19,024 bases of DNA, taken from Oscillospiraceae bacterium (GTDB lineage Bacteria; Bacillota; Clostridia; Oscillospirales; Oscillospiraceae). Location of the stretch: the NCBI GenBank assembly GCA_902766405.1, contig CACXDT010000118.1, positions 1 to 19,024 of the forward strand, given 5' to 3'. Below are positions 7,116 to 18,019 of this stretch, piece after piece. Each line of letters opens with the position of its first letter. Positions within the stretch are counted from its first letter, which is position 1. A program made the translations under genes and the position numbers. Under the pieces are notes generated by a model that was given only the letters and a program-made list of their open reading frames with translations, did not search any database and was not told the DNA's origin.

Positions 7116-7277
7116 ATGGCTTACAATCTGATGCACCGTATCATCACCACCGCAAAGAAAGAGGGAACCATCGGCGAGAAAAAGGCCGGTATCATGGACA
7201 AGCTCGATGCCTTTCTGGCGGCCGACCGTCTCACGGCGGAGCAGTACAGGGAGCTTGTCGCGCTGATCGACGCATGA
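7116..7277 (+). CDS. XkdX-like small phage protein, copy 1 (below the ORF-track size cut-off)
   Basis: Hand translation gives MAYNLMHRIITTAKKEGTIGEKKAGIMDKLDAFLAADRLTAEQYRELVALIDA* (53 aa). The GAGGAGGG RBS lies 7 nt upstream. It is a clear paralogue of 7358-7525 and resembles the XkdX pattern (...fl....IT.eeY.el). Confidence 0.65.
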   Translation: MAYNLMHRIITTAKKEGTIGEKKAGIMDKLDAFLAADRLTAEQYRELVALIDA

Positions 7278-7357
7278 GCGCCCTCGCCACCCGCCTCGCC
7301 GGGTGGATCATCAACCGACGTTTTCAACACGATCTTTCAAGATTGGAGGAATACACC

Positions 7358-7525
7358 ATGACCTATAAACTGATGAAGCGCATCATCGAAAACGGCCTCA
7401 AAAAAGGGAACCTTGACCGCGAGGCCACCTTGCAGAAGCTCGATGTGTTCCTGATGGCCGACCGGATCACGGTCGAGGAGTACCAGGAGCTCGTCGAAAT
7501 GATGGGAGGCGCGGACGATGAATAA
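7358..7525 (+). CDS. XkdX-like small phage protein, copy 2
   Basis: ATG at 7358 lies 7 nt after GGAGGA (7345-7350), so the listed 7274 start was rejected. MTYKLMKRIIENGLKKGNLDREATLQKLDVFLMADRITVEEYQELVE aligns with copy 1. Its 3' end overlaps the start of the DGR target gene. Confidence 0.7.
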   Translation: MTYKLMKRIIENGLKKGNLDREATLQKLDVFLMADRITVEEYQELVEMMGGADDE

Positions 7526-8735
7526 CTCCCCGCTGGAATTTCTGGCGAAGAAGTACGGCAACGTCGTCAAGTATGACGCCGCCGGGAACGTGGCCGGGAT
7601 CTATGTGAAATTCCAGAAGATGAAAAGCTCCGACCTCGTGGCCGGGCTGCCGGAGCGCACGCATCCCGCGTTCATAATCAACGGCGTGGAGCAGGATTAT
7701 ATCTTGCTCGGCAAATACAAGGCCGGAGAAAACGGCGTCAGCGGCGGCGCTCTCGTAAGCGCGCCGAACATTATGCCTGCAAGAAGCCTCGGCGCGGATC
7801 AGTGCCTCTCGCGGATGAAAGCGGCGGGCACCGGCATCACGGGCATGACCGTGGCCGACTACGGCTTTATCAAGCTGCTGGCGCAGAAAGAGGGCTGGGT
7901 GCCGAAGGGTAATACCTATTGGGGCCAGAGCCACAAGGACGCGACGGCCTGGGAGGTCGGCAAGGCGCTGACCGTCGGCGCCGTCCGCGGCTATGAGGGC
8001 TGGCGCTATGAGTGCCTGATCGCGCACACCACCGCCGCCGAGCTGAAGCCGGATATCGCGCCGACCTACTGGAAGAAGCTGAACTTCGTCGGGGGCGTGT
8101 CGCAGGACACCGGCAAAGACGCGAACACTCAGACCGGCTATCGCACGCTCAACGGCACCGGCCCGCTGGACTGGTATCTCGGCAACGACCCCGGCAACCT
8201 GGCGGATATCATCGGTTCCAGCCTGGAGCAGCAGTACGGCTACCGCATCGTGGATTGTGAGCTGCAGATCCTCGAAGATAACAACGCCGCCGACCCGAGC
8301 GCCGACCTCTCCGCAACCTCCGCCGCGTGGAAAGCGATCCTTCCGAACGCCTCCGACGACGGCTATACGCTGGTCGCTCCGGGAACGGCCGGGACGCTGC
8401 ATTGGAATTGGACGGGCACCGCAATCCAGCTCGACACGCAATGCGACGACCTGACCGTAGGTTCGAAAGGGCAGTCGTTCAAGACGCTCACCGCGCACGC
8501 CGAACGCCTCCCCTATGTTCCGAGCATCGTCAAGGAGCTGGGTCTTTTCCCGACAGGTTCGGGCGACAACACCGAGGGCTATTACTACGTCAACTTCGTC
8601 GCGGGAGAGCGTTTTCCCCGGCGTGGCGGCTACTACTACCTCACCAGCAGCGCCGGGCTTGGCTCTGTGCATGCCTACTACGAGCGCGGCTATGCGGCCA
8701 CGAACTATGGCTGCCGCCCGCGCTCCCTTCCCTGA
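7518..8735 (+). CDS. DGR target (variable) protein, C-type-lectin/FGE-sulfatase-like fold; probable receptor-binding protein
   Basis: 405 aa with a GGGAGG RBS 8 nt upstream. The last ~40 codons carry the VR. The C-terminus RRGGYYYLTSSAGLGSVHAYYERGYAATNYGCRP has the typical CLec VR scaffold (GG.w......G......N...GfR). The N-terminal HPAFIINGVEQDYILLGKYKAG...MTVADYGFIKLLA resembles FGE/CLec-type DGR targets. It is the last gene of the tail-fibre region. Confidence 0.85.
   Translation: MNNSPLEFLAKKYGNVVKYDAAGNVAGIYVKFQKMKSSDLVAGLPERTHPAFIINGVEQDYILLGKYKAGENGVSGGALVSAPNIMPARSLGADQCLSRMKAAGTGITGMTVADYGFIKLLAQKEGWVPKGNTYWGQSHKDATAWEVGKALTVGAVRGYEGWRYECLIAHTTAAELKPDIAPTYWKKLNFVGGVSQDTGKDANTQTGYRTLNGTGPLDWYLGNDPGNLADIIGSSLEQQYGYRIVDCELQILEDNNAADPSADLSATSAAWKAILPNASDDGYTLVAPGTAGTLHWNWTGTAIQLDTQCDDLTVGSKGQSFKTLTAHAERLPYVPSIVKELGLFPTGSGDNTEGYYYVNFVAGERFPRRGGYYYLTSSAGLGSVHAYYERGYAATNYGCRPRSLP
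8608..8727 (+). repeat. DGR variable region (VR)
   Basis: Ungapped 120-bp alignment to 9578-9697 (offset 970). There are 13 mismatches, at 8621, 8631, 8637, 8640, 8641, 8650, 8665, 8670, 8676, 8679, 8691, 8697 and 8698, and each faces an A in the TR. It lies in frame at the 3' end of the target CDS. Confidence 0.95.
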
Positions 8736-8766
8736 ATCCCTGACCCCTGGACGCTGAATCCCTGAC
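8732..8766 (+). repeat. 13-bp direct repeat CTGAATCCCTGAC x2 flanking the target-gene stop
   Basis: The copies lie at 8732-8744 (containing the TGA stop 8733-8735) and 8754-8766, separated by 9 nt. They sit between the VR end and the GC hairpin. Confidence 0.8.
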
Positions 8767-8790
8767 GGGGCGGCGCGGTAGCGTCGCCCC
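8767..8790 (+). promoter_or_regulatory. GC-rich hairpin downstream of VR (candidate DGR target-recognition cruciform)
   Basis: GGGGCGGCG-cggtag-CGTCGCCCC forms a 9-bp stem (one G-T pair) with a 6-nt loop, 40 nt after the VR/TR homology ends. No U-tract follows on either strand, so it is not a classical terminator. Confidence 0.5.
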
Positions 8791-9091
8791 TCAAAAGAAA
8801 CTCGCTCCATTCCGTTTCCACGGTTTCCGAAAGAGCCGGGAAAACTGCATATTCGCTCCTTCCTTTTTCGGGCACAAATTCAAACCCGCTTCGCTTGGCT
8901 TTGAATTTGTCAACACAGAGAGGGGGCGCGGCGGGTAGCAATTTGCACAACAGGGAGCAGCACCGACCACGCCAAAACCGCCGGAAAAACTTTCGAAGGG
9001 GTTTTACGCGCGCGGTCTAATCTTCTGAGTATTTATTATATACTCCCCCTTACCCCCAAATCGCCCGATTCGGCAAAATGACGGAGGAACC

Positions 9092-9508
9092 ATGCCGGAA
9101 ATCAAGTACACTGACGCCAACCCAGGCCCTTGCTGCCTGAAGATTGAGGACATGATCGACTATGCCAGGCCGATGCTTCAGCGCTGGCCGCCGTTCTTCC
9201 GATACACACTCGGCGAGGAGATCATGAACGAAATGCTGCTGATGCTGCGCCTGGCGACCAAGGCACGCCTGCGCTATATGAACAAAAGCACGCTGCAAGA
9301 CCTGGACACAAGCAAAGAAATCCTGAAAACCTTGGTCAGATCCGCGAACCGAACCGTTTTCACAGACCGGAACGGAGAAGAAAGGCGTCTGCTCAGTAAC
9401 CACAGCTTCGATGTTTGGAGTGGGTACATTGAAGAGATCGGCAAGCTGATCGGCGGCTGGATCAACGCCGTCAGCGGACGGACGAATCGGGGCGACCCCA
9501 ACAAATAG
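9092..9508 (+). CDS. avd: DGR accessory variability determinant (Avd), four-helix-bundle family
   Basis: 138 aa and basic, predicted all-helical. The RYTLGEEIMNEMLLMLRLATKA...K...L..L......L..L...A and IEEIGKLIGGWI pattern is typical of Avd/S23-ribosomal-like proteins. It lies between VR and TR, as in BPP-1. GGAGG lies 4 nt before the ATG, which is a short spacing. Confidence 0.8.
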   Translation: MPEIKYTDANPGPCCLKIEDMIDYARPMLQRWPPFFRYTLGEEIMNEMLLMLRLATKARLRYMNKSTLQDLDTSKEILKTLVRSANRTVFTDRNGEERRLLSNHSFDVWSGYIEEIGKLIGGWINAVSGRTNRGDPNK

Positions 9509-9577
9509 CCGCCATCTGGCGGTTATCCGGGAACGTGCCGTGATTTGGGTAGCTATAGTTTATCCAAAATGCTCTTT

Positions 9578-9697
9578 AGCGTTTTCCCCGACGTGGCGGC
9601 AACTACAACAACACCAGCAACGCCGGGCTTGGCTATGTGAATGCCAACAACGAGCGCGGCAATGCGAACACGAACTATGGCTGCCGCCCGCGCTCCC
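9578..9697 (+). repeat. DGR template region (TR)
   Basis: Non-coding copy of the VR containing 28 adenines, 13 of which are substituted in the VR. Read in the VR frame it is rich in AAC/AAT codons (NYNNTSNAGLGYVNANNERGNANTNYGC). It has the same orientation as VR and RT and lies 260 nt upstream of the RT start. Confidence 0.95.
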
Positions 9698-9957
9698 AGC
9701 ACACATCAAAAGAGCCGAAAAACCACGAGTTACCGGCCGCAATTCTGATGGGAGGGGCGCGTTTCCGTGGCGGGCCAGGCCCGCCTAAATGAAAATCCCG
9801 CACGGCTCCGGCAAGAACACTCCGGGGCATGGCCGGGCGGGAATCGCTGCGAAGCGCCCGGAAGGGCGTAATGCTCAGCCTGTCAGCAGCTTCCCGGTAG
9901 GGAAAACAGGCTACGCATAACGGGAAACGTCACGCGCAGCAGAACGGAGGCGGTCAC
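9698..9957 (+). ncRNA. TR-RT spacer, probable structured 3' part of the DGR RNA
   Basis: 260 nt with no credible ORF. Local helices visible by eye are GGCGGGC-cag-GCCCGCC (9769-9785), CGCCC-ggaa-GGGCG (9855-9868), and the nested AGCCTGT...TTCCC-ggta-GGGAA...ACAGGCT (9877-9912). In BPP-1 the equivalent spacer is part of the priming RNA. Confidence 0.5.
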
Positions 9958-11259
9958 TTGGAGGGGCTGCACAATCTGAGAGACCGCATCTGCGACTTTG
10001 ATAACCTCATGGGCGCGTACCGTGACGCCGCACGGGATAAGCGATACCGCGAGGAAGTCATAGCCTTTACTCTTAACCTCGGCGAAAATCTGCGTCAGAT
10101 CCAGCGCGAGCTTCTGGACATGACCTACACCGTGGGGCCATACCGGGAGTTCTATGTGCGCTTTCCCAAACCGCGCCTTGTCATGGCGCTGGGCTTCCGG
10201 GACCGCGTGGTACAGTGGGCCATCTATCGGCAGATCAACCCCTACCTGGACAAGCGCTACATCGAGCACAGCTACGGTTGCCGCACCGGCAAAGGCACAC
10301 TGGCCGCCGCCGAGTGCCTTTTCAACTGGCAGCAGCTTATCAGCCGCAAAGACGATGCCGACGAGTGGCAGCTTATCAAGGGCGATATCTCGAAGTATTT
10401 CTACCGCGTCGATCACGGCAAAGTACTGGAAACCTACGGCGAAGTATCAGACGACACCTGGTTTTCGTGGCTGATCGGCACGATCATCCGCAATCCAGAG
10501 GTTCCTTTCGGCCTGCCTGTCGGCATGAAGCCGGACGATTGCCCGCGCAGCCAACGGCTTTTCGAGGTTGGGATGCCAATAGGCAATCTGACGAGTCAGG
10601 AGACGGCAAACCTGTTCCTTGACCGGCTGGATCAGTTTTGCAAGCACACGCTGAAGCTGCACTACTATGTGCGCTATATGGACGACTTCTGCATCTTTGT
10701 CAAGGGCAAGGAGGAGGCCAAACGGGTATACGCTGAGATCGAGCGCTTCTTGCGCGAAACGCTGCTGCTGGATATCAGCCCCAAGAGCCGGATTCAAAAG
10801 GCCACGGCGCCGGTTGAGTTCGTCGGCTACCTGATAACACCGCACGGGATCCGGATGCGGAAGAAAACGACGCGGCATATCAAGCGGAGCCTGCGCTTTA
10901 TTTCGGCGTCCTTTGCGCTGGGCGCAATCGGCTATGAAAAAGCAATGGCATCCGCGATCTGCTACATCGGGATGTGTAAACACTGCGAGGGCTACAATCT
11001 GCTGCGGTGGATCGAGGAGAACTTCACGTTGGAAAGAGGCGATGCAGCCATGAGCCAGCTTGACGGGCCGCCCTGCGGAGGGCGGCGTTTTTATTCCATC
11101 CAGCCAAACGAGGACGGCAGCGTAGACGTATATCTTCGCCCGGATGATACAGGCCTGATCCGCGTCGTGCGCGGCGTAACGCCTTATGACGGTCTGGATG
11201 ATGATATACGGGCGCGGTATGACGCCTGGCGCGAGAGCGCTGAAACAATCTTTCTTTAG
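9958..11259 (+). CDS. DGR reverse transcriptase
   Basis: 433 aa with a TTG start 7 nt after GGAGG (9946-9950). The RT motifs are IKGDISKYFYRVDH (motif 3/A-like), GMPIGNLTSQETANLFL (the DGR-diagnostic [ILV]GxxxSQ) and YVRYMDDFCIF (YxDD box). It lies immediately 3' of the TR. Confidence 0.95.
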   Translation: MEGLHNLRDRICDFDNLMGAYRDAARDKRYREEVIAFTLNLGENLRQIQRELLDMTYTVGPYREFYVRFPKPRLVMALGFRDRVVQWAIYRQINPYLDKRYIEHSYGCRTGKGTLAAAECLFNWQQLISRKDDADEWQLIKGDISKYFYRVDHGKVLETYGEVSDDTWFSWLIGTIIRNPEVPFGLPVGMKPDDCPRSQRLFEVGMPIGNLTSQETANLFLDRLDQFCKHTLKLHYYVRYMDDFCIFVKGKEEAKRVYAEIERFLRETLLLDISPKSRIQKATAPVEFVGYLITPHGIRMRKKTTRHIKRSLRFISASFALGAIGYEKAMASAICYIGMCKHCEGYNLLRWIEENFTLERGDAAMSQLDGPPCGGRRFYSIQPNEDGSVDVYLRPDDTGLIRVVRGVTPYDGLDDDIRARYDAWRESAETIFL

Positions 11260-11271
11260 GAGGAATTGGGT

Positions 11272-11631
11272 ATGGAAAACCTGACCCCGGATCAGCTCCA
11301 AACCACCGTATATGTGATTCTCGCCCTCTTTGGATCTCTTATAACGGTGGATAAGGTGCTTGACATTTTCAAAAAGTGGAGAGCCCCAGCCAAGAATGCC
11401 GCCGAGGATGTGGAAAAAAAATTTTCCAACGATAAGCACCGCCTCGACGACCACGAGCGGGAGCTTGAACAGCAAAAGAGGGATATCGAGAGCCTGAAGG
11501 AGAGCTCCCGCGTCACGTCGGCGGGCGTCATGGCCCTGCTCGATCACGAGCTGCACAATGGCAATGCAGATCAGATGCAGGGCGCCCGCGACGATATCAT
11601 GGCATATCTCCAGGGACTTATGACAAAGTAG
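11272..11631 (+). CDS. N-terminally membrane-anchored coiled-coil protein (possible holin-like/lysis-associated)
   Basis: ATG at 11272 lies 8 nt after AGGAGG (11258-11263), so the listed TTG at 11266 was rejected. It has one predicted TM helix (VYVILALFGSLITV) followed by a charged coiled coil. Function is inferred only from topology and its post-tail position. Confidence 0.55.
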   Translation: MENLTPDQLQTTVYVILALFGSLITVDKVLDIFKKWRAPAKNAAEDVEKKFSNDKHRLDDHERELEQQKRDIESLKESSRVTSAGVMALLDHELHNGNADQMQGARDDIMAYLQGLMTK

Positions 11632-11714: not shown

Positions 11715-12320
11715 ATGAAAAAAATCCTTGTTCTTATGCTCGTGCTGCTTATGGCCGTGATGCTCGCGGCCTGCACCGTGCCCGCCATGCAGAACCCCGA
11801 CGGCACTGATACCGTGGCGGGCGTGGCGATCATGACCGGGCTCGATATCCTGGAAAAGGTCGTCGTTACCGCCCTCGGCATCGCTGGTACAGCATGGGCC
11901 GCCAAATCGAAGGACAATAAGCACATCCAGAACATAGCCCTTGCATTTGACAATGTTTTGAAAGCCACCCGTATAACAGTCGGCGAGCTGAAACAGACCA
12001 CAGTTGACCACTTGAAAGCAGAAAGCGAAGATGGCAAGCTCACCCCGGACGAAATTGCACAGTTAAACAGCGACCTCCTCACGCTCACGCTGAAAAAACT
12101 CGACGAGCCCACGAAAAACCTGTTGGCTGCCGCCGGTGTGGATATATGCGCCCTGATTGCGGGAGCCGGTGAGGATTGGGTACGCGAAACGAAGCTTGGC
12201 GGGGTCGCTGTTCTCGGCCAGATCATGGACGCGACGGACGCCATCACGGAGAACGCCGGTGCAGTTGACGAGGCCGCTGCGGCCATCGAAAAGGCTGCGG
12301 CGGCGATCAAAGGCGAGTAA
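11715..12320 (+). CDS. Putative lipoprotein (possibly LL-H-holin-like or superinfection-exclusion)
   Basis: 201 aa with an AGGAGG RBS. The signal peptide MKKILVLMLVLLMAVMLAAC ends in an L-A-A-C lipobox. The mature part is helical and Ala/Lys/Asp-rich. The functional call is speculative. Confidence 0.6.
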   Translation: MKKILVLMLVLLMAVMLAACTVPAMQNPDGTDTVAGVAIMTGLDILEKVVVTALGIAGTAWAAKSKDNKHIQNIALAFDNVLKATRITVGELKQTTVDHLKAESEDGKLTPDEIAQLNSDLLTLTLKKLDEPTKNLLAAAGVDICALIAGAGEDWVRETKLGGVAVLGQIMDATDAITENAGAVDEAAAAIEKAAAAIKGE

Positions 12321-12328
12321 CTATCACA

Positions 12329-12366
12329 CGAGGCCCGGACGTGTGCCGGGCCTCGGTTGTTTTTTC
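12329..12366 (+). terminator. Rho-independent terminator
   Basis: A perfect 10-bp GC-rich stem CGAGGCCCGG / CCGGGCCTCG with loop acgtgtg is followed by GTTGTTTTTT. It lies 9 nt after the lipoprotein stop. Confidence 0.85.
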
Positions 12367-12404
12367 AGCTTGTTACTTGTCATAATGGGAGGATTGTAAA
12401 ACAC

Positions 12405-13010
12405 ATGAAACTGGTACAGCCTATCCGAGACTTGGACACGCTGCAAAAGTGCTTCGAGATCGCGCGCGAGCATGACGCCCGCCGGAAAACAGGAGAAGTC
12501 TGCTGGGAATTGATATTGCTCGTCGGCCTCAATACCTCGCTGCGCGTGAGCGATTTCCGGCGCTTCAAGGTGTCCGACCTCCGGGGCCGCGACTATGCAC
12601 AGATGCAGGCCAAAAAAACCGGCAAGGAGGCGCGGATCCTGATTAACCCTCAGGCCCGGAAGGAGATCAACCGCCTGCTGGCCGGGAGAAAGCCGGACGA
12701 GTTCATTTTCCAGAGCCGCCAGAAGGACGGCGTTACCCACAAGGCCCGCCCGATTTCCAGACAGCGGTGTTATCAGATCATGAACGTCATCGCCAAGAAA
12801 GCCGGGATTGAGGAACGAATCGGCTGCCATACGCTGCGGAAAACCTTCGGTTACCATTACTACCAGACGACCGGCGATGTGGTGAGCCTGCAAAGGATCC
12901 TGGGCCACTCCTTCCAGCGGGAAACGCTGGTTTATATCGGCGTCGTTCAGGAGAACATCGACGAATCCATGATGAAAATGAACATGCTGACCGGGCGGCG
13001 AGCCCGGTAA
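12405..13010 (+). CDS. Short tyrosine recombinase (phage-integrase catalytic domain only)
   Basis: ATG at 12405 was chosen because the listed 12357 start lies inside the terminator. The catalytic signature is in order: NTSLRVSD (Arg I), KTGKEARI (Lys), HTLRKTF (His-x-x-Arg), LGHS (His) and TLVYI (Tyr). At 201 aa there is no room for a normal N-terminal core- or arm-binding domain. Confidence 0.8.
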   Translation: MKLVQPIRDLDTLQKCFEIAREHDARRKTGEVCWELILLVGLNTSLRVSDFRRFKVSDLRGRDYAQMQAKKTGKEARILINPQARKEINRLLAGRKPDEFIFQSRQKDGVTHKARPISRQRCYQIMNVIAKKAGIEERIGCHTLRKTFGYHYYQTTGDVVSLQRILGHSFQRETLVYIGVVQENIDESMMKMNMLTGRRAR

Positions 13011-17633: not shown

Positions 17634-17692
17634 TCCTTTCTGCCCTCGTGACCTCCGGGGCGGGCATGATTTGAAATAATCCGGCGGCGTTA
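17634..17692 (-). repeat. 59-bp junction unit A (contains junction repeat copy 7, 17672-17693)
   Basis: The plus strand reads tcctttctgccctcgtgacctccggggcgggcatgatttgaaataatccggcggcgtta, identical to 17961-18019. On the minus strand it starts with the TAA stop and ends in AGAAAGGA (RBS). Confidence 0.95.
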
Positions 17693-17953
17693 GGCTTCGA
17701 AAAAGCGCGCAGGATCATCCGGGTCTACCAAGCGGCCAAAAATGTTTTTCCCGTCGTTCTGCCAATTCAACAGGGTTTTCCCAAGCTCGCAGCCCTCCGC
17801 CGTCTCGTAGACGGAATACCCGGCAGACATTCTTTCGATTCCGTTGTTTCTCACGCCCTTGAGGAAGAGTATCATTTGATCGAGCCGGTCGATGTCCACT
17901 GTTCCTATCTCCCCCAGCGGATTCAAGGTTTTGCAGTACATGAAGCGGTACAT
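17690..17953 (-). CDS. Hypothetical protein
   Basis: 87-aa ORF bounded on both sides by the perfect 59-bp junction unit. The TAA stop lies inside copy 7. Confidence 0.65.
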   Translation of the reverse strand: MYRFMYCKTLNPLGEIGTVDIDRLDQMILFLKGVRNNGIERMSAGYSVYETAEGCELGKTLLNWQNDGKNIFGRLVDPDDPARFFEA

Positions 17954-17960
17954 AAAGCTT

Positions 17961-18019
17961 TCCTTTCTGCCCTCGTGACCTCCGGGGCGGGCATGATTTG
18001 AAATAATCCGGCGGCGTTA
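17961..18019 (-). repeat. 59-bp junction unit B (contains junction repeat copy 8, 17999-18020)
   Basis: Perfect 59/59 direct repeat of 17634-17692. The flanks diverge immediately on both sides. Confidence 0.95.

Follow-up and report, generated by a model that had tools for sequence, protein, structure and literature searches.

The window, a 19,024-nt stretch of DNA from an Oscillospiraceae bacterium, carries tail genes followed by the parts of a diversity-generating retroelement (DGR). A sequence-only reading had proposed four co-oriented parts in the order of BPP-1, mtd(VR)-avd-TR-brt. All four were found in place on the + strand, in the order target, avd, template region (TR) and reverse transcriptase (RT), together with the following known or predicted elements:

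7518–8735, + strand: DGR target gene, encoding a TaqVP-like variable protein of C-type-lectin (CLec)/FGE fold, 405 aa
7947–8075, + strand: CBM_5_12-like module (aa 144–186 of the target), inserted at the position of TaqVP insert 1'
8608–8727, + strand: variable region (VR), codons 364–403 of the target gene
8714–8727, + strand: GC-rich 14-mer CCGCCCGCGCTCCC, the same in VR and TR, counterpart of BPP-1 (GC)14
8728–8766, + strand: VR-specific part of the IMH, with five CTG(A/G) motifs
8767–8790, + strand: target-site hairpin/cruciform with a 10-bp GC-rich stem and a 4-nt loop, GGTA, which fits GRNA
9092–9508, + strand: avd (accessory variability determinant), 138 aa
9529–9539, + strand: upstream strand GGGAACGTGCC of a predicted 11-bp long-range RNA duplex bracketing the TR
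9578–9697, + strand: non-coding TR; contains 29 adenines and, in frame, 10 AAY codons
9698–9957, + strand: spacer (Sp) RNA, 260 nt, predicted to be structured
9714–9737, in Sp: candidate Avd-binding stem-loop
9746–9754, in Sp: predicted primer strand TGATGGGAG, pairing with the TR 3' end CTCCCAGCA at 9693–9701
9756–9766, in Sp: predicted stop-duplex strand, pairing with 9529–9539
9769–9785, in Sp: hairpin read by eye, outside the 48 counted pairs, then an A-rich stretch at 9786–9796
9796–9842, in Sp: predicted hairpin
9846–9851 with 9935–9940, in Sp: predicted long-range helix
9854–9869, in Sp: predicted GNRA-capped hairpin
9958–11259, + strand: DGR reverse transcriptase, 433 aa, with a TTG start and a C-terminal extension of ~75 aa

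The hallmark of a DGR is that TR and VR differ (almost) only at TR adenines, and an AAY-rich TR cannot create stop codons. Here, VR and TR form a 120-nt repeat that is mismatched at 13 positions, each of them a TR adenine; the non-A positions of the VR show zero drift. As the sequence-only reading had it, the TR is a non-coding segment of 120 nt, which we place inside a conserved structured RNA, and the VR takes up the last ~40 codons of the 405-codon target gene. When the TR was converted to a pattern that allows any nucleotide at each adenine, it matched these two sites only within the window, and shuffled sequences gave no matches. A-specificity was likewise 100% in all 10 related loci (13 to 19 mismatches each), and a single VR was found in the window. 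Eighteen target codons can vary through TR adenines, 10 of them AAY, and a stop codon is possible at none of the 18. The ceiling on protein diversity is about 4e16 variants.

The target ORF matched the solved CLec/FGE-type DGR variable protein TaqVP (PDB 5vf4) in a phmmer search of the PDB (E = 2.4e-31), as well as phrog_2889 in PHROG (E = 2e-62). An AlphaFold2 model of the protein (pLDDT 83.7 overall and 74–93 in the VR region) also resembles 5vf4 (Foldseek E = 2e-28, TM scores of 0.71/0.75) and gives weak Foldseek matches to FGE structures (E about 0.05, TM scores of 0.27/0.37). Judged by homology and modeling, the target is a TaqVP homolog of CLec/FGE fold in which the VR is predicted to form the C-terminal ligand-binding surface. 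We also considered the Mtd family of BPP-1 and rejected it: BLASTP returned no significant alignment with Mtd, and in structure the protein is most like TaqVP, a monomer with a single domain.

Carbohydrate-binding modules of family 5/12, the chitin-binding type, have a fold of ~45 residues and bind chitin through exposed aromatics. The target scored 27.2 bits against Pfam PF02839 (CBM_5_12), just over the cut-off of 26.2, and the module matched the chitin-binding domain of ChiA1 (1ed7; E = 3e-4) and gave local Foldseek matches with rmsd of 1.2–1.6 Å. Alignment places it between TaqVP residues 157 and 166; in TaqVP, insert 1' contacts the VR. The Trp of the ChiA1 'GWEP' motif is replaced by Leu in the module ('ELKP').

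Avd is found in most DGRs. The 138-aa ORF previously read as Avd matched the Pfam family bAvd (PF22296; 1.9e-19, 70.6 bits, cut-off 40) and phrog_3206, 'Avd protein of DGR' (1.6e-23, 84 bits). Its score against the NCBIfam equivalog DivGenRetAVD was 69.8 bits, under the cut-off of 80, and in pairwise comparison it resembles BPP-1 Avd only weakly.

The RT begins with TTG, with GGAGG located 8 nt upstream, and contains both motifs reported earlier, IGNLTSQ at aa 208–214 (nt 10579–10599) and YMDD at aa 240–243 (nt 10675–10686). The former carries the DGR signature [I/V/L]GxxxSQ, not QGxxxSP, and R73 and I208 align with R74 and I181 of BPP-1 bRT, the residues linked to adenine mutagenesis. Profile searches matched RVT_1 in Pfam (1.6e-20) and phrog_1423 in PHROG (3e-105, 354 bits). 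Because other RT classes would have pointed away from a DGR, the RT was compared with them as well: its nearest solved relative is BPP-1 bRT (8ub7; E = 1.2e-36), not a group II or retron enzyme, with group II-type RTs at ~1e-16. The 113-aa segment of 8ub7 in the RT alignment is 100% identical to BPP-1 brt. By its motifs and its best solved match, the protein is a DGR-clade reverse transcriptase; its ~75-aa C-terminal extension had zero Pfam or PDB matches. Both refuting checks proposed with the sequence-only reading, one on the RT and one on the target fold and Avd, favored a DGR.

Elements resembling a retrohoming site lie at and beyond the 3' end of the VR. The GC-rich 14-mer, assigned from its sequence following the definition in PMC3240598, is followed by CTG(A/G) motifs starting at 8732, 8740, 8747, 8754 and 8762 (spacing of 8, 7, 7 and 8 nt). 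The CTG columns are invariant in 9 loci, five CTG were reached by 0 of 20,000 shuffles, and the array is not present in the TR flank. The DNA hairpin beyond it is kept in 8 loci, with compensatory changes at 4 of its 10 pairs. It conforms to the published rule of a 7–10 bp stem and a GRNA loop (PMC3240598), and starts 39 nt past the end of VR/TR homology, slightly outside the published range of 4–34 bp.

An IMH built as a CTG(A) array at 7–8 nt spacing was common to most phage DGRs sampled, with the periodic motif present in 43 of 71 VR flanks versus 0 of 71 TR flanks. The 21-bp IMH of BPP-1 also carries the periodic motif, and the array there coincides with the IMH/IMH* mismatches. This array may deserve follow-up.

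RNAalifold and pair counts across 10 loci predicted a structured RNA around the TR. Double changes occurred at 28 of 48 pairs, and 94.7% of cells were paired versus 37–51% in slid controls; 0 of 500 shuffles matched this pairing. The TR:Sp duplex and the 11-bp stop duplex are predicted in the BPP-1 arrangement, with both helices mostly invariant. The 11-bp duplex would be analogous to the avd:Sp 'cPRT Stop' duplex of BPP-1, and the covariation-supported RNA as a whole appears to copy the BPP-1 cis-priming layout. The Sp primer strand ends in G-A-G-G, versus A as the priming nucleotide of BPP-1. A simple scan found no sigma-70-like promoter site.

For the window's phage, activity was judged from differences between contigs. 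Among more than 600 homologs, hypervariability is confined to residues templated by TR adenines, and in a family of 119 homologs, no site has an entropy of ~3 bits or above apart from the 10 residues for which TR AAY codons are the template. The closest relative, L008, has a TR identical to that of the window and a VR that differs at 14 positions, all 14 of them TR-A positions; the target genes of the two differ by 11.7% in the VR versus 3.2% in the remainder. Two further target proteins (P0121 and P0122) are identical but for four VR residues. Judged from this recent activity in relatives, mutagenic retrohoming is apparently ongoing.

We estimate a probability of about 0.93 that the window contains an intact DGR of the BPP-1 type (target-avd-TR-RT) on a ~56-kb uncultured gut-type phage of Clostridia/Oscillospiraceae-type hosts. 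The element is complete and apparently active, and what it recodes is the binding tip of a protein from the tail region. By analogy with BPP-1, the avd-TR-Sp-RT transcript would fold such that the 11-bp duplex 9529–9539/9756–9766 brackets the TR, while the TR 3' end (9693–9701) pairs with the spacer segment 9746–9754. The RT-Avd complex would then cis-prime cDNA from the spacer, presumably near G9692/C9693, copy the TR with misincorporation opposite its 29 adenines, and halt at the bracketing duplex. The cDNA would replace VR 8608–8727, with homing probably guided by the GC-rich 14-mer, the VR-only CTGA array and the GRNA hairpin. As an outcome, the 405-aa protein would have 18 codons recoded in the ligand-binding face of its C-terminal C-type-lectin fold.

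Two alternatives concern the element itself. The RT could belong to another retroelement or defense system (group II intron, retron or DRT/Abi), with the repeat an ordinary duplication; sub-threshold matches to group II, Drt3a, retron and UG models and the IMG tag 'retron-type reverse transcriptase' on one cluster member point this way. However, the rival models score 25–119 bits versus 354 bits for phrog_1423, with group II, DRT and retron models all far under curated cut-offs, and among solved structures bRT leads the other matches by 20 orders of magnitude. An Avd gene adjoins, the repeat mismatches are A-specific in 13 of 13 cases, and the locus is without intron RNA, msr/msd or a maturase/endonuclease domain, with an empty Rfam search; we regard this alternative as effectively refuted. 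A recently inactivated element that has lost mutagenic retrohoming is also very improbable. Some Faecalibacterium phage DGRs do lack an activity signal on sequencing, and the TTG start of the RT, the promoter scan and a target-avd intergenic region ~80 nt longer than in L008 could each be read as signs of decay. Yet the TTG start is common to 9 of 10 relatives, every ORF is intact, the residues for catalysis and A-mutagenesis are in place, and the cis elements are all conserved. The undrifted non-A positions of the VR, and the identity of the L008 TR alongside VRs that differ at A positions only, also argue against a fossil.

The third alternative accepts a functional DGR and concerns what the target binds. 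Upstream of the target gene lie homologs of tape measure, Baseplate_J and Tail_P2_I, consistent with the contractile-tail module that the sequence-only reading had described, and small fiber-region ORFs; no sheath gene was found within the window. The target gene follows these ORFs and precedes a putative lysis/integrase region, in which the integrase is a small tyrosine recombinase, and this position is the same in all relatives. Because the gene stands at the distal end of the baseplate/fiber module, and given its fold, the 405-aa protein is most likely the adaptable receptor- or glycan-binding protein of the phage. Alternatively, its ligands might be glycans of the surroundings, for example mucus or polysaccharide, or it might have a role in the lysogen, in which case diversification would tune something besides host range. 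The protein is a single-domain, TaqVP-like one, without Mtd similarity and without a recognizable fiber/baseplate-attachment domain (profile searches likewise identified no large tail-fiber gene), it has the CBM_5_12-like module, and TaqVP is described as a monomer. Moreover, the DGRs of other gut phages diversify Hoc-like capsid decoration proteins, for which mucus binding has been suggested. Against this stands the gene position directly after Baseplate_J/P2-I, which is that of the Mtd-like DGR target in phage FP_Lagaffe, and its conservation in all relatives; we consider a role other than host-receptor binding unlikely, though a good deal less so than the two alternatives above.

Compared with BPP-1, the window's DGR shares the order of genes and repeats, the A-specific TR/VR differences, the Avd family, the RT motifs IGxxxSQ and YMDD, and counterparts of bRT R74 and I181. 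Also shared is the succession of GC-rich 14-mer, VR-specific IMH with periodic YTGA motifs and GC-rich hairpin with a GRNA tetraloop. The predicted RNA layout would match too, with a TR:Sp duplex beside an 11-bp upstream:Sp duplex, followed by a stem-loop and adenosines. It differs in its RT, which is only 29% identical to BPP-1 Brt and has a ~26-aa internal insertion besides the C-terminal extension, and in its spacer (260 nt versus 140 nt), which has extra hairpins. For the predicted stop duplex, the upstream strand is placed in the non-coding DNA that follows avd, whereas in BPP-1 it is part of avd. The IMH has five motifs in 39 nt versus three in 21 nt in BPP-1. It shows no relation to IMH* (by our own count, 7 of 21 positions match), whereas IMH and IMH* of BPP-1 differ at 5 positions. 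The host, too, differs, being a Gram-positive-type Clostridia bacterium.

TaqVP, from a Thermus aquaticus prophage DGR with BPP-1-like genetic structure, is homologous to the target over its full length and shares its fold, a single CLec domain of FGE type that carries a VR of ~40 residues at its C-terminus. Identity is ~25%, and the window's protein differs in having the CBM_5_12-like module in the stretch that corresponds to insert 1'. A described parallel in gene layout is FP_Lagaffe (Lagaffevirus), a Myoviridae-type phage of a high-GC Oscillospiraceae member in which DGR activity was observed in reads (Cornuault et al. 2018). It has the same synteny (tape measure, baseplate, P2 J-like, P2 I-like, small ORFs, FGE-type target, Avd-like, TR and RT), an A-specific TR/VR pair and periodic AATCTG motifs before a hairpin. 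However, its target, RT and Avd are 29%, 46% and 32% identical to those of the window, its RT is without the C-terminal extension, its hairpin loop is 7 nt long, its integrase is of the IS30 type, and a second VR was reported there versus the one found here. The sequence-only reading had also called DGRs in phages of GC-rich Firmicutes little characterized, which overstates the case: publications from 2018 and 2024 describe DGRs of Faecalibacterium phages, and such elements are present in 10 of 18 F. prausnitzii phages. The DGR of the window is a clear yet ordinary case of a system already described in these related phages.

Every feature by which a diversity-generating retroelement (DGR) is defined, and that can be tested in silico, was found at the window locus. 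As the sequence-only reading had proposed, the ORF map and repeat search revealed four co-oriented parts on the plus strand: a target gene, an avd gene, a non-coding template region (TR), and the gene for a reverse transcriptase (RT). The variable region (VR) lies within the target gene and is followed by the VR-specific part of the IMH, the element at the VR 3' end that also includes a GC-rich stretch common to TR and VR.

Features of the DGR in the window
7518-8735, + strand: target ORF, 405 aa (ORF map)
7947-8075 (target aa 144-186), + strand: CBM_5_12-like module (Pfam score barely over the cut-off; local structural matches with rmsd of 1.2-1.6 Å)
8608-8727 (VR) and 9578-9697 (TR), + strand: 120-nt direct repeat, 89% identity, the sole such repeat found in the repeat search
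Last 14 nt common to VR and TR: GC-rich 14-mer CCGCCCGCGCTCCC (sequence)
8728-8766, + strand: VR-specific part of the IMH, 39 nt, with CTG(A/G) occurring five times, spaced 8, 7, 7, and 8 nt apart
8767-8790, + strand: hairpin with a 10-bp GC-rich stem and the loop GGTA
9092-9508, + strand: Avd ORF, 138 aa (ORF map)
Between the Avd and RT ORFs: gap of 449 nt (ORF map)
9958-11259, + strand: RT ORF, 433 aa, TTG start with GGAGG 8 nt upstream
11029-11259 (RT aa 358-433), + strand: C-terminal extension of the RT, ~75 aa, kept in close relatives

The predicted placement of VR at the C-terminal end of the target was confirmed, as it spans codons 364-403 of the 405-aa ORF. The proposed 120-bp TR/VR repeat also shows strict adenine specificity: all 13 mismatches fall at adenines of the downstream copy, the TR, which contains 29 adenines in total. 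Read in the target frame, TR has 10 AAY codons, and in none of its 18 adenine-bearing codons can mutation of an A produce a stop codon. These 18 codons set an upper bound of ~4e16 protein variants. When the window was searched with the TR pattern in which A was replaced by N, the only two matches were VR and TR, and shuffled sequences gave none; neither this pattern nor self-BLAST revealed a second VR in the window.

The RT matched RVT_1 and phrog_1423 (354 bits). Its best solved relative was chain 8ub7_A (E = 1.2e-36), with group II-type RTs next at ~1e-16, and the 113-aa segment of 8ub7_A aligned to the RT is 100% identical to brt of BPP-1, the Bordetella phage carrying the reference DGR (mtd-avd-TR-brt). 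Matches to models of group II, retron, and DRT enzymes were far under their cut-offs, which argues against membership in these other RT classes. The IGNLTSQ motif picked out in the sequence-only reading is present at aa 208-214 and conforms to the DGR signature [I/V/L]GxxxSQ. RT residues R73 and I208 align with R74 and I181 of the BPP-1 RT (bRT), both of which have been demonstrated to promote adenine mutagenesis. The two RTs share 29% identity, and the window RT differs in having an internal insertion and the C-terminal extension, which is missing from both bRT and the RT of FP_Lagaffe, a Faecalibacterium phage with a syntenic DGR. Extensions of this kind occur in ~20% of DGR RTs; Pfam and PDB sequence searches with the C-terminal 80 aa returned no family or structure match. 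In a related locus from a Clostridia MAG (L001, 6001-7337), the RT match contains stops in single-frame translation and may be frameshifted, degraded, or a segmented match; the TR/VR pair of this locus nonetheless has 16/16 A-specific mismatches.

The assignment of the 138-aa ORF as Avd was supported by a Pfam bAvd score of 70.6 bits against a cut-off of 40 and by a match to the PHROG "Avd protein of DGR." The ORF falls under the cut-off of the stricter NCBIfam Avd equivalog model.

The target is homologous over its full length to TaqVP (PDB 5vf4), which is the variable protein in the DGR of a Thermus aquaticus prophage and has an FGE-type C-type-lectin (CLec) fold. An AlphaFold2 model of the target built with 71 homologues had a pLDDT of 83.7 and a pTM of 0.85. 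Comparison of this model with 5vf4 using Foldseek yielded an E value of 2e-28 and TM scores of 0.71/0.75, in agreement with a CLec/FGE-like fold. Formylglycine-generating enzymes were among the weak structural matches of the model, and the target had no detectable similarity to Mtd. The CBM_5_12-like module occupies the point in the CLec fold at which insert 1' is placed in TaqVP, where this insert contacts VR. Carbohydrate binding by the module is uncertain because Leu replaces the Trp found in the "GWEP" motif of ChiA1. With its TaqVP-like fold and carbohydrate-binding-type insert, the window target is a naturally occurring version of a scaffold that has been put forward for molecular display.

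At the 3' end of VR, CCGCCCGCGCTCCC is the counterpart of the (GC)14 element of BPP-1 (PMC3240598), and beyond it the VR and TR flanks are wholly unlike. The hairpin is kept in eight relatives, with compensatory changes at 4 of the 10 pairs, and every loop conforms to GRNA. A hairpin with a GRNA loop is the rule set for BPP-1-type target sites (PMC3240598). At 8793-8930, the target-avd intergenic region is ~80 nt longer than in the closest relative (L008), and the extra sequence includes an AT-rich inverted repeat of 11 bp, ACAAATTCAAA...TTTGAATTTGT.

The periodicity of the VR-specific IMH part was compared across 71 non-redundant phage DGR VR 3' flanks, drawn from the window and from loci retrieved through RT similarity (36-80% identity). 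Three or more CTG spaced 7-8 nt apart were present in 43 of the 71 VR flanks versus 0 of the 71 TR flanks, and controls yielded such arrays in 2 of 3,465 random windows and 3 of 3,550 shuffles. The array unit is approximately (A/T)(T/C)CTG(A), with a consensus of roughly AATCTGA, and occurs in 3-5 copies between the GC-rich VR end and the hairpin. We observed the array in the window (8728-8766), in FP_Lagaffe (L031), in BPP-1 (L112, 1863-1890), and in loci within the set L032-L111. As judged from sequence, the motif is distributed more widely than the window phage family and is kept from BPP-1 to the window Clostridia phage. The 21-bp IMH element of BPP-1 reads TCTGTGA-CCACCTGA-TTCTTGA, and all five mismatches between it and its TR-side counterpart (IMH*) are within the first two of its three TGA-containing motifs. 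These five mismatches set the direction of transfer.

The CTGA motifs in the window give TGA in all three frames, and the array could thus be read as a provider of three-frame stops. This explanation was rejected as a general one because related DGRs have ATCTG without TGA and because the BPP-1 motifs fall within the ORF. The reading we put forward, with a probability of about two in five, is that the VR-specific IMH half is an array of 3-5 motifs rather than arbitrary sequence, and could act as the recognition code for a multimeric homing factor. If true, such a code would bear on the cDNA-integration step, and the periodicity may help explain how cDNA finds its target; DGR papers describe the homing step as still poorly understood. 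The DGR papers covered, which describe the IMH and hairpin, contain no description of this periodicity; one may exist elsewhere.

A consensus RNA structure was obtained by aligning the avd-to-RT interval of ten loci. In the predicted structure, GGGAACGTGCC (9529-9539), located 5' of TR, forms 11 bp with 9756-9766, and the TR 3' end CTCCCAGCA (9693-9701) pairs with TGATGGGAG (9746-9754), leaving a gap of 1 nt between the two spacer strands. A hairpin at 9769-9785 and then an A-rich stretch follow 3' of the duplex strands; this hairpin and its covariation come from reading the alignment by eye, and the hairpin is absent from the RNAalifold prediction and from the count of 48 pairs. Across these 48 pairs, 94.7% of cells were paired and 28 pairs had double changes, none of 500 shuffles was as good, and slid controls were 37-51% paired. 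Covariation is mostly in accessory hairpins; the two key duplexes hardly vary, and therefore their pairing is backed mainly by conservation and analogy. In the BPP-1 RNP (cryo-EM), a TR:Sp template-primer duplex is followed by two nucleotides, an 11-bp avd:Sp "cPRT Stop" duplex, and then a short stem-loop and adenosines making A-minor contacts, and that study predicted similar elements for many other DGRs. The predicted window layout corresponds to this arrangement, with a gap of 1 nt instead of two and a spacer of 260 nt versus 140 nt. The window spacer RNA, as predicted, echoes the cis-priming architecture of BPP-1 in a distant lineage and supports the generality of the mechanism. Rfam gave no match anywhere in the window, a scan for sigma-70 promoters detected none, and terminator-like sites were not above chance.

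All related loci examined contain a TR/VR pair of 119-122 nt with 13-19 mismatches, every one at TR adenines. Among 119 target homologues with at least 75% identity, column entropy reached ~3 bits only at the ten AAY-templated residues, and other A-containing codons were intermediate. The closest relative, L008, has a TR identical to that of the window, yet the two VRs differ at 14 positions, 14/14 of them A-templated; the difference amounts to 11.7% in VR versus 3.2% over the remainder of the gene. Two database proteins, P0121 and P0122, differ at four VR residues and are otherwise identical. These differences between contigs, as opposed to reads from the window genome, are indirect evidence of activity.

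Upstream of the target are a tape measure gene, inside which the window begins, tail-X/LysM-like, gpW-like, Baseplate_J, and Tail_P2_I genes, and seven small ORFs. We take this gene order to resemble PBSX/P2-type contractile-tail modules; a sheath gene is absent from the window. For the small ORFs that separate the P2-I homologue from the target, and for ORFs 11266-11631 and 11715-12320, searches gave nothing beyond PHROGs whose function is unknown and Pfam noise below threshold. Directly upstream of the target, the tandem paralogous small genes 7116-7277 (53 aa) and 7274-7525 (83 aa) share a 73-nt core with 75% identity, match phrog_2310 (function unknown), and are also duplicated in relatives. 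Small ORFs follow the RT, together with the only recombinase in the window, a 217-aa tyrosine recombinase (12357-13010) located ~1.1 kb past the DGR with weak similarity to Xer and FimB/FimE-type invertases. Among the genes on the minus strand, an 87-aa gene (17690-17953) is flanked by the two copies of a perfect direct repeat of 59 nt (17634-17692 and 17961-18019), each made up of a stop codon, intergenic sequence, and the RBS of the gene that follows. The 87-aa gene looks like a gene cassette with duplicated intergenic segments at its borders; folding of the repeat was no better than that of shuffles.

The exact target protein is present on contigs of ~56-57 kb, and public metagenomes hold more than 600 target homologues with at least 75% identity. 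Relatives were found in MAGs labelled Clostridia and Oscillospiraceae, and the window has a G+C content of 57%. With every cis element clean and many natural variants available, the locus makes a good model for comparison.

No GenBank phage matched 7000-12000 in a megablast search, and relatives among deposited phages were found at the protein level only, with target identity of at most 30%. The FP_Lagaffe target (29%, full length) is the best-ranked of several ~28-30%-identical matches in deposited phages. The RT of this phage is 46% identical to the window RT, and the phage shares the synteny of the window, starting with the tape measure and ending with the RT. FP_Lagaffe is classed as a Myoviridae-type phage, with an FGE-superfamily target, an Avd homologue, and VR variability in its reads (Cornuault et al. 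2018), and 10 of 18 phages of F. prausnitzii have DGRs. The sequence-only reading therefore overstated how little phage DGRs have been characterized in such hosts, as earlier work on the same host group has already described the class to which the window DGR belongs. The window DGR overturns no current understanding and adds one more well-formed example, from a gut-type Clostridia phage lineage that is abundant and uncultured.
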